From the IMG/VR virus record IMGVR_UViG_2698536647_000005: a stretch of DNA of 25,289 nucleotides; one strand, written 5' to 3'. Both the position numbers and the translations under genes were made by a program. This document shows, piece after piece, positions 7,856 through 14,143 of the stretch. The first letter of the stretch is position 1. Every line of letters begins with the position of its first letter. The stretch is from a virus (taxonomy: Duplodnaviria; Heunggongvirae; Uroviricota; Caudoviricetes). The notes under the pieces are model-generated. The model did not search any database. It was not told where the DNA came from and saw only the letters and a program-made list of their open reading frames with translations.

Positions 7856-8419
7856 ATGGTAGACAGCATAAATACAGCAATCCGCCTGATGTGTAAGGCA
7901 CACAAGCATGGTCGCTTAGGTATGGCTTCCGATTTAGGGATGACTATCGACCAGTTCCACAACCACCTGTACCAGAAGTGTGGCAGTCGGTTCTTTACCT
8001 TGGCAGAACTGGAACGGATGGAGGACCTGTCTGGTTCTTGTTACTTGGCCGAGTACCAGGCGAACCGAAAAGGGAAATGGCTGGTGGATGTTCCAACTGC
8101 TGAGAGCCTGGATAACGTTGAGCTGTACAGCATTGAGATGAAAGCGGCAGCAGCATCTGGTGAGCTGGCTAATGCCAAGATGGCAGCAGCGGCTGATGGG
8201 GTAATTGATTCATCAGAGCGCAAAACGCTTTCAGAATTATTCAGTAAGAAGCTCCGCCACCAGATTCACGGGTTCCTGGGATTTATGGCGCTTTATGGGG
8301 TTGGTGTTTCAGATCAGGCGATTGACGTATTCGTTTCAACAGGCAGAAAAGGTGACGCCCGCGAGTGTGCAGCTCCGGGCGCCTTGGCGTGTCGTATCAG
8401 TGGAGAAACTAACGCATGA
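7856..8419 (+). CDS. YdaT-like or CII-like early regulator candidate, about 187 aa
   Basis: Internal ATG 7856 with a GAGGGAAA ribosome-binding site. Occupies the position of cII, directly after the Cro/YdaS-like gene. The family assignment is from memory and is weak. Confidence 0.4.
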   Translation: MVDSINTAIRLMCKAHKHGRLGMASDLGMTIDQFHNHLYQKCGSRFFTLAELERMEDLSGSCYLAEYQANRKGKWLVDVPTAESLDNVELYSIEMKAAAASGELANAKMAAAADGVIDSSERKTLSELFSKKLRHQIHGFLGFMALYGVGVSDQAIDVFVSTGRKGDARECAAPGALACRISGETNA

Positions 8420-8754
8420 ACAGTGTAAACCGATTCAGACCAGCTAAGCAATTCAGATGTTTGCCGCTGGTGGGTAAAGATGCCCAGTTCGGCTATGTGG
8501 AAATCATAAATAACGCGGCTGATGGAGGCAACTACCAGCCAGCAGACTTGATGGTAGAAGCATTTGTTCAGATGAACGAGAAGGGGCGCGAGGAATGGCT
8601 GAAGTTAACCGGCGGTTCAGAGATCACTACGGAGTTCCCGTCAGAGTTGTCCGCTGGGAGCCAGATACACAGCGCGTTATATACCTTCGCGAAGGGTACG
8701 ATCATGAGTGCTTCAGCCCTCTTGAACAATTCCAGCGTAAATTTACAGAATTAA
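8416..8754 (+). CDS. Hypothetical protein, 112 aa
   Basis: ORF with ATGA start/stop overlap with the upstream gene and a GGAG about 10 nt upstream. Confidence 0.5.
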   Translation: MNSVNRFRPAKQFRCLPLVGKDAQFGYVEIINNAADGGNYQPADLMVEAFVQMNEKGREEWLKLTGGSEITTEFPSELSAGSQIHSALYTFAKGTIMSASALLNNSSVNLQN

Positions 8755-8763
8755 AGGACGACC

Positions 8764-9618
8764 ATGAGCACTAAATTAACCGGTTACGTATGGGATGCAT
8801 GCGCTTCGTCAGGCATGAAGTTATCCAGCGTTGCCATCATGGCGCGTCTGGCAGACTTCAGCAGTGATGAAGGGGTTAGCTGGCCTTCCATCGCTACCAT
8901 CGCGCGCCAGATTGGTGCTGGTGAGAGCACGGTTCGTACAGCCATATCTCAGCTGGAAAAAGATGGTTGGTTAACCCGCCAGCAGCGCCGTAAAGGCAAC
9001 CGAAATGCATCGAACGTTTACCAGCTCAATGTTGCGAAATTGCAGGCTGCTGCCTTTTCTCACCTGTCAGATTCTGACGCATCAAAATCTGATGCCTCAA
9101 AAACAGACGCGTCAAAATCTGAGGCATCAAAAAACGATGAAAAAGGCGGTTTTCACCCGTCAGAATCTGGGGGGGATCCGTCAGTAAATACAACTACTGA
9201 TCCATCAGTTAAAAAACCTTCTTGTCCGGTTGCGCCGCAACCAGACCCTGAAGTGATGATCACCGATAACGCCATCCTAGTTCTGAATCATCTGAACCTG
9301 GTTAGTGGCTCACGATACCAAAAATCAAAAACTTCTCTGGAAAACATCCGTGCTCGTCTGCGTGAAGGTTACACCGTTAGCGACTTACAGCTGGTGATCG
9401 ACCTTAAGCATGAGCACTGGAACGGCAATGACGTGCAGTACCAGTACATGCGTCCTGAAACGCTCTTCGGTCCGAAAAAATTTGAAGGTTATCTGCAAAG
9501 CGGGATCCGCTGGGACAAGAAGGGGCGGCCACCGCGTGACAGCTGGGGTGAAAAGAAACATGACCCGATGAAGTTCGGTCCGGTTGATAGCAAGATTCCA
9601 GAGGGGTTCAGAGGATGA
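8764..9618 (+). CDS. Replication initiation protein (O-like; N-terminal helix-turn-helix, iteron-encoding linker, conserved phage C-terminal domain), 284 aa
   Basis: AAGGA ribosome-binding site. N-terminal helix-turn-helix (SWPSIATIARQIGAGESTVRTAISQLEKDGWL). The central linker is encoded by four tandem 15-bp repeats. The C-terminal region resembles the conserved C-terminus of phage replication proteins. Position is equivalent to lambda O. Confidence 0.7.
   Translation: MSTKLTGYVWDACASSGMKLSSVAIMARLADFSSDEGVSWPSIATIARQIGAGESTVRTAISQLEKDGWLTRQQRRKGNRNASNVYQLNVAKLQAAAFSHLSDSDASKSDASKTDASKSEASKNDEKGGFHPSESGGDPSVNTTTDPSVKKPSCPVAPQPDPEVMITDNAILVLNHLNLVSGSRYQKSKTSLENIRARLREGYTVSDLQLVIDLKHEHWNGNDVQYQYMRPETLFGPKKFEGYLQSGIRWDKKGRPPRDSWGEKKHDPMKFGPVDSKIPEGFRG
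9074..9133 (+). repeat. Four tandem 15-bp iteron-like repeats inside the replication gene, followed by an A-rich stretch: putative origin of replication
   Basis: Units CTGACGCATCAAAAT, CTGATGCCTCAAAAA, CAGACGCGTCAAAAT and CTGAGGCATCAAAAA, each with a dyad core of the form TGACGCGTCA. Followed by AAAAACGATGAAAAAGG. This mirrors the lambda arrangement of the origin inside gene O. Confidence 0.55.
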
Positions 9619-10946
9619 TGGAAAATAAATACTGCCGTGCACTGGCTGAACTCCGTTCAAAACCAGCACACGAGTTGAAAGAGGTCGGTGATCAATGGCG
9701 CACTCCGGATCTGTTGTTTTGGGGGATCAATGCGATGTTCGGCCCTCTGGTGTTGGACCTTTTTGCCGACGACAGCAACGCGAAGAGCCCAGCATGGTAC
9801 ACGGCTGAAGATAATGCCCTGACGCAGGATTGGTCAGAGCGGCTGGCAGAACTCGGTGGTGCCGGGTTTGGCAACCCGCCTTACAGCCGCTCTCAGTACC
9901 ACGACAAGCAGGCCGTTACCGGAATGACCCACATCATTAACCACGCTATGGCCATGCGAGAAAAGGGTGGTCGGTACGTTTTTCTCATTAAGTCTGCGAC
10001 GAGTGAAACGTGGTGGCCGGAAGAGGCAGATCACGTCACATTCATCCGTGGCCGAATTGGTTTCGATCTTCCTACATGGTTCGTGCCGAAAGACGAAAAG
10101 CAGCAGCCCACCAGCGCATTTTTTGCTGGCGCTATCGTGGTCTTCGACAAAACATGGCGGGGTGAGCGTTTCAGTTACATCAACCGCACCGACCTGGAGG
10201 CCAAAGGCCGTGCTGCGATGTCGCTGGCCCAATTTGCCGTGGGAAGAACGCAAACTGATGCGGCGCCAGAGCTGGACGCTGAGGTAGTGCCGAAGAAATC
10301 AGAGGCAGAACTGCCATTAACCCAAAAAGCCATTCTGGAAACCAGCGGTGTAGAGGCTTGGGCCTGTGTTGTCGCGGCGTTCGGCGAGAAAGACGAGTAC
10401 ACCTTCAGCGAGTCAAAGTTTGGTCATACCTGGGCTGCCGACTCTCTGGAAAACCCTGAATTTACCAATGTTTCACCGCTGACGATCGACAGAGCGAAAA
10501 AGCTGATCAGCGAGAGCATCCTGGTGGGTGTTAATGCATGGCTGGAAACATTGCCCTTTGATAGCGATGACGTGAAACAAGACATGTCAGAGCGGTTACG
10601 CACGGTTGCCGTTGAGTCTGCGAAAGAATACGGCATTAACCACAGTGAATTCATCGCGACCATGGAAAGCCTGGATAAAGCCAAATGGTCAAATATTCGG
10701 GGGATCCGCGCCCATGTCCGTGAGACGCAGGAATCAAAGGACAAGGCGTTAAACGAATCGCGCGTTTGGCCTCTTGAGGTTGGACTGGTGTTTAACCAGA
10801 TTGAAGGGGCTGACGCTCTACCTGTTTCGCAGCAGAACAAGCTGAAAGCCAACATCAATCAACTCTGGCTGGAACGAACGGCCACCAGCGAAATCATTAC
10901 TGCCGCTTCTGAACTTGTTCGCAATATGCGGGGAGAGGCCGCGTGA
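9615..10946 (+). CDS. Phage Dam-type N6-adenine DNA methyltransferase (N-terminal about 190 aa) fused to a roughly 250-aa domain of unknown function, 443 aa
   Basis: DQWRTP and LDLFAD motifs and the catalytic NPPY motif (GFGNPPYS) in the N-terminal half. Single uninterrupted ORF. ATGA overlap with the replication gene. The C-terminal half has no motif I recognise. Confidence 0.75.
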   Translation: MMENKYCRALAELRSKPAHELKEVGDQWRTPDLLFWGINAMFGPLVLDLFADDSNAKSPAWYTAEDNALTQDWSERLAELGGAGFGNPPYSRSQYHDKQAVTGMTHIINHAMAMREKGGRYVFLIKSATSETWWPEEADHVTFIRGRIGFDLPTWFVPKDEKQQPTSAFFAGAIVVFDKTWRGERFSYINRTDLEAKGRAAMSLAQFAVGRTQTDAAPELDAEVVPKKSEAELPLTQKAILETSGVEAWACVVAAFGEKDEYTFSESKFGHTWAADSLENPEFTNVSPLTIDRAKKLISESILVGVNAWLETLPFDSDDVKQDMSERLRTVAVESAKEYGINHSEFIATMESLDKAKWSNIRGIRAHVRETQESKDKALNESRVWPLEVGLVFNQIEGADALPVSQQNKLKANINQLWLERTATSEIITAASELVRNMRGEAA

Positions 10947-13306: not shown

Positions 13307-14143
13307 ATGAAACTTGAAGCTTCACTAAAACACTTTAGCCCTCAGGGTATGCACATCAGCGACGACGTGAAAGGAACCTCTCCGGACCGCCTTACAGGAA
13401 CAGATGTAATGGCGGCAATTGGCACCACCAGCAGCCGTGCGCGCTTCGGACTGGCGGCGTTCTTCGGTAAAGCGGGAATCAGCAAAACGGATGAACAGCT
13501 CGCAGTTCAGGCGCTGGCGCGATATGCGATGGATGTCGCACCGAAGAATGTTCGCAAAGCAGCTGGTGGGCAGTTCGGATGGTGCATGCAGATGTTGGCA
13601 CAATTTGCCTTTGCTGATTATTCACGTTCGGCGGCTACAAGCGTGACGTGTCACAGCTGCAGTGGTACCGGACGAACAACCCGCGAACAGATTACCCGCA
13701 AGGTTTCGTACCCATGGGGTAAAGCTCCATACTGGGCCTGCCGCTCTCGTGCTGTTCGACCGTCTGACTGGGAGCAGTGGATGGAGGTAACAGAGGTTGT
13801 ACCGGCGGTCTGTGATGCTTGCGAAGGCAAGGGAACGATCAGCGCCCGTTGTCGTTGCGGCGGTAAAGGCGAGGTTCTAGACCGCAAGGCCACAAGCGAG
13901 CGCGGCGCGCCGGTGTTTAAAACCTGCGAGCGCTGCAGCGGAAATGGATTTTCTGCGGTGCCGTCTACCGCAGCCTATAAAGTGATACTGAAGCGCGTTC
14001 CGGATCTGCACGTCAGAACATGGACTCGCAACTGGAAACCGTTTCTTGAGGCGCTGGTAAGCATTTGTCAGCAGGAGGAGGGAAACGCCGCAAGAGAATT
14101 TCAATCTGCAACCAGTTTAGGCGAAGAAGGTGACGAAATTTAG
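13307..14143 (+). CDS. Putative late-gene antiterminator (Q-like), Cys-rich with DnaJ-type CxxCxGxG repeats, 278 aa
   Basis: Last gene before a promoter-plus-terminator unit and the lysis cassette, which is the Q position. Three exact CxxCxGxG repeats (CHSCSGTG, CDACEGKG, CERCSGNG) and one variant (CRCGGKG). The functional call rests on position only. Confidence 0.45.
   Translation: MKLEASLKHFSPQGMHISDDVKGTSPDRLTGTDVMAAIGTTSSRARFGLAAFFGKAGISKTDEQLAVQALARYAMDVAPKNVRKAAGGQFGWCMQMLAQFAFADYSRSAATSVTCHSCSGTGRTTREQITRKVSYPWGKAPYWACRSRAVRPSDWEQWMEVTEVVPAVCDACEGKGTISARCRCGGKGEVLDRKATSERGAPVFKTCERCSGNGFSAVPSTAAYKVILKRVPDLHVRTWTRNWKPFLEALVSICQQEEGNAAREFQSATSLGEEGDEI

Follow-up and report, generated by a model that had tools for sequence, protein, structure and literature searches.

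A probable replication origin embedded in the initiator gene of a lambdoid prophage

In several groups of bacteriophages, the replication origin is found inside the gene of the initiator protein. This is the case in lambda and in the Stx phages, which carry four and six iterons, respectively (PMC7466680). Putative iteron origins are also located in gene 18 of phages P22 and L, with six imprecise copies of an 11-bp sequence in L (PMC8022706). In TP901-1 (ORF13), Tuc2009 (Rep2009) and r1t (ORF11), the initiator binds direct repeats situated in the gene that encodes it and followed by an A/T-rich unwinding element (PMC8965321). Similarly, oriL of SPP1 lies in gene 38, which encodes gp38 (PMC6316719). 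The present study deals with a stretch of 25,289 nucleotides (IMG/VR virus record IMGVR_UViG_2698536647_000005, Caudoviricetes; the whole stretch is hereafter called the window, and all positions are window coordinates) that corresponds to a lambdoid prophage. An initial annotation described four 15-bp iterons with a palindromic core at 9074-9133 in the replication-initiator gene (8764..9618, plus strand) and likened them to the lambda origin inside gene O. Our analysis suggests, with a probability of roughly 70%, that these repeats are part of a composite origin of ~190 bp (9055-9246), carried by the sequence that encodes the linker of the prophage's own initiator.

Judging from the sequence, the layout of this locus is lambda-like, but the protein family is unrelated and the repeat sequence different. 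As in lambda ori, mid-gene direct repeats with internal dyad symmetry encode the linker that joins a DNA-binding N-domain to an exchangeable C-domain, the duplex is less stable beyond the repeats, and the number of iterons differs among relatives. In lambda, a palindrome stands to the right of the A/T-rich region; the inverted repeat found here at 9224-9246 would parallel it. Unlike in lambda, the window protein has an N-domain of the HTH_36 type and does not match the lambda O family in Pfam, the repeats have a period of 15 bp and a core of 11-12 bp instead of being iterons of ~19 bp, and an extra distal core is present after a fixed spacer. Moreover, two 24-bp repeats headed by GATC make up the A/T-rich part, and the initiator gene is followed by a Dam-type methyltransferase fusion instead of a P gene. 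Because of the missing Pfam match, the different period and core and the absence of a downstream P gene, the initiator is not considered as a member of the lambda O family.

Other described systems share parts of this arrangement. P22 and L are also lambdoid, their distantly related initiator genes each have their own internal repeats, and the core of L has the same size, 11 bp, as that of the window. However, the L repeat is TGTCCAACGGA, and a DnaB-type helicase gene (gene 12) is present beside the initiator gene in these phages, whereas the window prophage has none. With the Gram-positive replisome organisers, the window initiator shares in-gene direct repeats and weak profile matches to DnaD_N and to 'DnaD-like helicase loader' families. 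This similarity remains under the family thresholds (24.7 bits for DnaD_N, for a cut-off of 27), and the Gram-positive systems include a dedicated helicase loader and/or a helicase. SPP1 also has a second copy of its origin, whereas the 25-kb window has no second cluster of cores. Finally, in the iteron plasmids pPS10, F, R6K and RK2, winged-helix Rep proteins bind tandem direct repeats beside an unwinding element, and GATC sites are involved in several iteron plasmid origins. Unlike the present array, plasmid iterons have ~17-22 bp, are helix-phased and lie outside the rep gene. The locus is described below as a probable new member of the origins embedded in initiator genes.

A repeat block conserved as DNA

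Tandem Repeats Finder detects an array of period 15 at 9073-9132 (4.0 copies, 77% matches, score 78), together with a second call of period 30 (1.9 copies, 89% matches), and four copies at 15-bp spacing were also recovered by a separate repeat search. The array is located within ORF 8764-9618(+) (284 amino acids) and is read in frame as DASKS / DASKT / DASKS / EASKN. Four 15-bp repeats within an initiator gene, coding for an SDASK-like linker, are thus present as initially described. The dyad core proposed at that time, TGACGCGTCA, must be regarded as a consensus, since this exact string is not found in the window. Its variants in the four units are TGACGCATCA (9075), TGATGCCTCA (9090), AGACGCGTCA (9105) and TGAGGCATCA (9120). 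All are self-complementary at 8 of 10 positions, a perfect 8-bp palindrome (GACGCGTC) is limited to unit 3, and unit 2 is the exact reverse complement of unit 4. Comparison with relatives shows that the middle of the proposed core is the least conserved part of each unit.

A position weight matrix was derived from 352 units of relatives (GACnCnTCAAAATCT, which reads G-A-C-n-C-n-T-C-A-A-A-A-T-C-T). In each unit, the third codon positions are nearly fixed and the middle codon is nearly free. Inside the units, serine is encoded by TCA in 90% of the cases at one position and by TCT in 75% at the other, as compared to 16% and 13% elsewhere in the same genes; aspartate is GAC in 80% (44% elsewhere), and lysine is AAA in 264 cases out of 264 (64% elsewhere). 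The core conserved across unit boundaries is TCA(A/G)A(A/T)TCTGA(C), i.e. TCARAWTCTGA(C), so that the register has to be moved by half a unit: the core initially proposed was centred on the free codon. With at most one mismatch, TCARAWTCTGA occurs in the 25-kb window at 9067, 9082, 9112 and 9160 only. Counted by strand, this gives 8 hits, all inside 104 bp, for 2.08 expected in the window, and no second cluster of these cores is found elsewhere in it. In 54 relatives, the element contains a median of five cores (at most one mismatch), with one core in total in the remainder of those genes. The cores are spaced by 15 bp (166 cases), 30 bp (10 cases) or 48 bp (26 cases).

The conservation was further evaluated in a codon alignment of these 54 relatives (<92% nucleotide identity to one another), using the identical-codon fraction, that is, the share of identical codons among pairs having the same residue. 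In the N-domain (codons 1-97), this fraction is 0.417 for an amino-acid identity of 0.79, and synonymous sites are saturated, four to six codons being used at most degenerate sites. The fraction reaches 0.82 in codons 98-104, before the array (amino-acid identity 0.52), and 0.87 in codons 6-37 after the array (amino-acid identity 0.64), then returns to 0.50 beyond codon 37 (amino-acid identity 0.47). The difference between block and N-domain, codon by codon, is highly significant (Mann-Whitney p = 7e-17), and the amino-acid identity of the block is below that of the N-domain. From the profile of the codon fraction, the constrained block extends over 9055-9246, that is ~190 bp, three times the array of 60 bp to which the element had been restricted. 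As expected of an origin embedded in an initiator gene, the repeat DNA is conserved beyond what the protein requires. Codon usage thus points to conservation of this ~190-bp stretch at the level of the DNA and not of the protein and, because of this, the block is most likely a replication origin.

From left to right, the sequence coding for the N-terminal DNA-binding domain (codons 1-97, 8764..9054, plus strand), conserved as protein, is followed by the putative origin (9055..9246), where synonymous variation is suppressed (identical-codon fraction 0.82-0.87). The leftmost iteron core, box 0 (9067..9077, TCAGATTCTGA), is a perfect 11-bp palindrome that overlaps the start of the array and is kept in relatives. 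The four 15-bp units (9076..9135, plus strand, register D-x-S-K-S) contain good cores at 9082-9092 and 9112-9122 (TCAAAATCTGA) and two degenerate ones, with 2 mismatches at 9097-9107 and 3 at 9127-9137. A spacer of fixed length and free sequence comes next (9136..9150; amino-acid identity 0.29), and precedes a distal conserved box (9151..9174, TTTCACCCGTCAGAATCTGGGGGG) with nearly invariant columns, an iteron core at 9160-9170 and an inverted-repeat relationship with 9068-9087 (85% complementary). In 26 loci, the distal core invariably lies 48 bp from the last good core.

Two 24-bp A/T-rich repeats then follow, at 9175-9198 (GATCCGTCAGTAAATACAACTACT) and 9199-9222 (GATCCATCAGTTAAAAAACCTTCT), each beginning with GATC. 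At both GATC sites (9175 and 9199), the aspartate codon is GAT in 100% of the sequences. GATC as such is not enriched in the window (104 sites for ~99 expected, no significant local cluster); it is the conservation of these two sites in relatives that is unusual. The least stable 40-mer of the 8600-9700 region falls within 9181-9225 (99th percentile of the window), so that the locally least stable duplex is found 5-50 bp beyond the distal core. This designates 9175-9222 as the candidate DNA-unwinding element. The initial annotation mentioned an A-rich tract after the array. Such a tract does follow the array (~9127-9145), but it corresponds to the spacer, the most variable part in relatives, which makes it a poor candidate for unwinding as compared to 9175-9222. 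The right edge of the block is an inverted repeat (GTCCGGTTGCG, 9224-9234, and CGCAACCAGAC, 9236-9246; 91% complementary). Its arms pair at columns 207-221 of the alignment, with compensatory changes in 2-7 sequences. Beyond this edge, in the part coding for the exchangeable C-terminal domain (Phg_2220_C, 9247..9618, plus strand), synonymous sites are free again (0.50).

Two further features of the array deserve mention. A global dyad spans 9063-9174, with its centre near 9109/9110: 9090-9099 and 9120-9129 are 100% complementary, and the arms 9068-9087 and 9150-9169 are 85% complementary. Such pairing would allow single-stranded or supercoiled DNA to form a large cruciform or hairpin. Besides, the end of the last unit (TCA AAA AAC) forms at 9129-9135 a zero-frame A_AAA_AAC heptamer, a classic pattern for -1 slippage. 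A -1 shift there would give CGA followed by TGA (9138-9140), and the predicted product, of ~126 amino acids, would be truncated to the DNA-binding domain plus the repeats. This heptamer is restricted to the close lineage of the window (unit GAGGCATCAAAAAAC, 12 of 352 units) and is not conserved in other relatives.

The initiator family, its modules and its neighbourhood

The encoded protein comprises an HTH_36 winged-helix domain (residues 23-70), a disordered linker and a Phg_2220_C domain (residues 173-245). In Pfam, HTH_36 (PF13730; 1.9e-09, 37.6 bits for a cut-off of 25) and Phg_2220_C (PF09524; 4.7e-23, 81.5 bits for a cut-off of 27) both exceed the gathering scores, DnaD_N (PF21984) does not, GntR, PaaX and others are listed as well, and no match to the lambda O family (Phage_rep_O) is obtained at E <= 0.01. 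The protein also belongs to PHROGs families of initiators (phrog_11896 'primosomal protein', 1e-77; phrog_428 'replication initiation protein', 2.8e-68; 391 'replication initiation O-like'). Together, the two Pfam domains and the PHROGs membership place it among HTH_36 + Phg_2220_C initiators. Among solved structures, only weak matches to winged-helix regulators were found, none closer than E = 0.02. An AlphaFold model of low confidence (mean pLDDT 47.5, shallow alignment), used for the secondary-structure boundary only, has helices up to residue 103, none at residues 104-161 and helices again from residue 162. The constrained block thus coincides with the linker predicted to be unstructured (residues 104-161, nt 9073-9246).

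A scan with the N-domain, limited to one genome per species, gave 78 loci with N-domain identities of 64-99%, from Escherichia, Enterobacter, Citrobacter, Kluyvera, Pantoea, Erwinia, Yersinia, Rahnella, Providencia, Proteus and other Enterobacterales. Homologues number more than 2,000 in all. Phages Flotzy, LLS and Eeyore and E. coli chromosomes harbour near-identical copies, and Shigella phage SfII and a prophage of strain Nissle 1917 are among the relatives at ~80% identity. Nearly all true homologues among the 78 loci have an (S-D-x-S-K)n array, with three units in 5 loci, four in 40, five in 21, six in 10 and nine in one, while a single recognisable unit is left in three loci. Even proteins more than 94% identical to that of the window exist in versions with 2, 3, 4 or 6 units. 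In locus L006, the four units are identical, which indicates unit-to-unit homogenisation. The number of units in the array is thus labile, a situation also seen when lambda is compared with the Stx phages. Repeat numbers differ elsewhere in the block as well: one of the proteins more than 94% identical, P0093 (DPSVNTTT x 2 + DPSDKK), has the downstream 24-bp unit three times, and in a Proteus locus (L075; 2903-2988 and 2993-3050) the distal box recurs in tandem (33 bp, x 2.6) and the 24-bp GATC-headed unit is present 2.4 times. Free variation of the repeats without a matching change of the DNA-binding domain had been named beforehand as an argument against an origin. In the comparison, copy number does vary freely, from 2 to 9, with an unchanged N-domain, and the repeat sequence tracks the type of N-domain. 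Since lambda has four iterons and Stx phages six (PMC7466680), free copy number is not regarded as a refutation.

The link between repeat and N-domain is illustrated by domain exchange. In two loci (L004 and L006) and in SfII, the N-domain and the block are shared with the window and the C-domain is unrelated. Conversely, locus L007 and 17 viral contigs (including L121-L126 and 11 more IMG/VR loci) have the C-domain of the window and a different N-domain. The latter has no Pfam hit, and its linker contains a 22-bp repeat (x 4.8; L007 2346-2454) with consensus CGCAAAATCGCGGAACCGAAAA. The window and L007 types are joined to their common C-domain at PSCPVAPQPD, which corresponds to the terminal dyad 9224-9246. 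Relatives with 63-67% N-domain identity retain the core: phiP27 has TGAACCGTCAAAATC (x 3.3) and the 24-bp repeat (x 2.5), Trabulsiella has CAGATTCCGAACGTT (x 4.3), and the Proteus locus with the repeated distal box also belongs here. HTH_36 initiators at 41% identity or less have unrelated repeats in the equivalent position, of 21-24 bp in the mEp460/SfV type and of 24 bp (x 2.9) in Stx2a_F403. At the level of domain types, the repeat sequence thus appears to follow the DNA-binding domain, independently of the C-domain. As for phiP27, its record (AJ298298.1, gene L17; locus L088, 1501-2427) contains an HTH_36-type initiator with 15-bp and 24-bp repeats. The O protein described for a 'phage P27' is two residues off lambda O and has six lambda-type iterons (PMC7466680); this is either the same phage or a clash of names.

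The initiator gene follows cI, cro and cII in the early-right operon. The integrase gene (1-1314) and a cI-like repressor gene (6778-7497) are on the minus strand; between the repressor and the initiator are cro-like and cII/YmfL-like genes and then an ORF of the DUF4222 region. Downstream, the start of a Dam-type N6-adenine methyltransferase fusion (9615-10946, plus strand, 443 amino acids; Dam domain at residues 19-199) overlaps the stop codon of the initiator gene. The C-terminal extension of this fusion, of ~240 amino acids, has no Pfam match. RusA, antirepressor and DUF968 genes come after the methyltransferase and before the Q antiterminator gene (13307-14143).

A gene with a Dam domain is found downstream of the initiator in 27 of 51 relatives, on which ground an obligatory link to a phage Dam gene was rejected. 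Relatives that do not have it often possess another methyltransferase gene at this place (MT-A70-like or cytosine-C5, as assigned by eye), and SfIV is devoid of the methylase (PMC3851460). More generally, the downstream partner of this initiator type is not fixed. A lambda-P-like protein, recognised by eye from the translation, is encoded after the initiator in a Lonsdalea prophage (L055, ~3325-4062), and an annotated DnaC-like protein, L18, follows the initiator in phiP27 (L088 2558-3291).

The origin and its alternatives

Beyond the conservation of the block as DNA, an origin is favored by the position of the repeats, three or more of which lie in the initiator gene between the DNA-binding and C-terminal domains, as in other embedded origins. 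Several observations weigh against it. Two of the four units of the window have degenerate cores, and the A/T content of the putative unwinding region is only moderate (GC 0.38 in the 24-bp repeats). A period of 15 bp corresponds to ~1.4 helical turns, so that adjacent sites do not share a face of the helix, in contrast to the ~20-bp iterons of lambda. According to the ORF list, Pfam and PHROGs, no P-like, DnaC-like or DnaB-like gene is present next to the initiator in the window. No publication mapping the origin of this initiator family was found in a literature search that included SfII, SfV, e14 and CPS-53-type modules. Finally, concerted evolution could explain part of the codon uniformity within the array, and the antisense frame is free of stop codons through the array in all relatives.

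Concerted evolution would be at work if the array were a slippage-prone, low-complexity flexible linker, (SDxSK)n, without any function at the DNA level, the uniform codons resulting from duplication and homogenisation. The changes in copy number by whole units among near-identical genes (2, 3, 4 or 6), the predicted absence of structure in the linker and the identical units of L006 are in keeping with this idea. However, homogenisation does not account for the non-repeated flanks: the synonymous constraint extends ~110 bp past the array into non-repeated sequence, with an identical-codon fraction of 0.87. Moreover, none of the 264 lysine codons is AAG in genera that show saturation of the synonymous sites of the N-domain, and the middle residue of the units is free in the protein as in the DNA, which fits a binding site plus spacer better than a peptide repeat. 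A mere linker is therefore very unlikely. An overlapping coding sequence or an RNA element, that is, an antisense ORF (9193-9026, 55 amino acids), a structured mRNA or a small RNA, appears highly improbable. The antisense frame does remain open over the array and the 58 nt that follow in 53 of 54 relatives. Its upstream stop, however, is placed anywhere from +58 to +127 while the constraint reaches +110 in all relatives, and the most variable positions of the units are positions 1 and 2 of the antisense codons and the least variable are positions 3, the reverse of a coding pattern. As for RNA, the iteron region of the window is predicted to fold at -63.8 kcal/mol (plus strand) and -76.3 kcal/mol (minus strand), far better than shuffled sequences (~-40 and ~-49; z = -5.6 and -5.9). 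This strong folding of the single sequence is attributed to the units being mutually inverted repeats, an explanation also noted for the lambda iterons (PMC7466680). Against an RNA element, the RNAalifold consensus is weak (-18.4 kcal/mol, covariation term -0.72), a scan of 8400-9800 gave no Rfam match at E <= 1, and a variable copy number is unsuited to a defined RNA fold. In addition, a promoter and terminator scan detected no promoter-like site in the block and just a weak terminator-like site on the minus strand (9158-9144), counts being no higher than in shuffled sequences.

Alternatively, the cores may be sites for the initiator or for another regulator, acting in autoregulation or as a roadblock to transcription of the nin-region genes located downstream. 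Autoregulation through their own sites is frequent among the initiators of iteron replicons, and the cores are indeed within the early-right transcript. Nevertheless, a simple operator would need neither the conserved low-stability repeat pair nor the terminal dyad, and internal repeats are the origin in every characterised phage of this gene layout, which makes a purely regulatory role quite unlikely. The least probable of the explanations considered is that of a conserved module boundary, maintained by frequent recent recombination between lambdoid phages and having no replication role. It would explain why the N- and C-modules are joined exactly at PSCPVAPQPD (9224-9246), where the block ends on its right side. 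On the other hand, invariant motifs are interleaved with free middle codons and with the hypervariable spacer of fixed length, and this interleaving argues for old divergence with site-specific constraint, not for recent common ancestry. Besides, synonymous sites are saturated in the N-domain with which the block is always associated.

Taken together, the interpretation of the repeats as a lambda-like origin is partly supported, and seems right in substance. Its central idea, an origin with iterons in the linker-coding part of the initiator's gene, draws strong comparative support from the constraint at the DNA level, from the dependence of the repeat sequence on the N-domain type and from the annotation of the protein family as an initiator. 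The register, the extent and the unwinding candidate had to be corrected; in addition, the protein is not a lambda O homologue by Pfam, and its gene is not followed by a P-like gene.

Proposed mechanism and implications

From this arrangement, we infer the following scheme for the embedded origin. The N-terminal winged-helix domain (residues 1 to ~100) would bind the TCARAWTCTGA(C) cores, five of which are recognisable in the window (9067, 9082, 9097, which is weak, 9112 and the distal one at 9160), with a period of 15 bp and a fixed 48-bp step to the distal core. Several bound initiators may then assemble into a nucleoprotein complex resembling the O-some of lambda. This complex would strain and open the adjoining low-stability pair of 24-bp GATC-headed repeats (9175-9222). 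The exchangeable C-terminal domain would finally recruit the helicase, presumably that of the host, DnaB, because no P-like, DnaC-like or DnaB-like gene adjoins the initiator gene.

A more specific possibility, which we regard as unlikely, is that of a loader-less origin gated by methylation. The two conserved GATC-headed 24-bp repeats would serve as the unwinding element, and firing would be timed by adenine methylation or by sequestration of the SeqA type, a methyltransferase gene being often located directly downstream. In this scheme, the C-domain would recruit host DnaB without a phage P-like or DnaC-like partner. Any role of methylation at the two conserved GATC sites is speculative.

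An initiator-embedded origin of this kind would be of interest well beyond the window, since the initiator type is common in prophages of Enterobacterales, including the serotype-converting Shigella phage SfII, the prophage of E. coli Nissle 1917, phiP27 and prophages of Klebsiella and Enterobacter. A defined origin candidate of 190 bp with a clear core motif would offer a direct handle for building replicons or phage-derived vectors. It may make the replication of these prophages measurable or blockable, and should improve the annotation of their initiator genes. The block also illustrates neatly how the same natural DNA segment can double as coding sequence and cis-acting site. Moreover, it may be used to test how a lambdoid replicon functions without a helicase loader of its own. 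If the origin did prove to be loader-less and gated by methylation, it would represent a replication control circuit undescribed for lambdoid phages.

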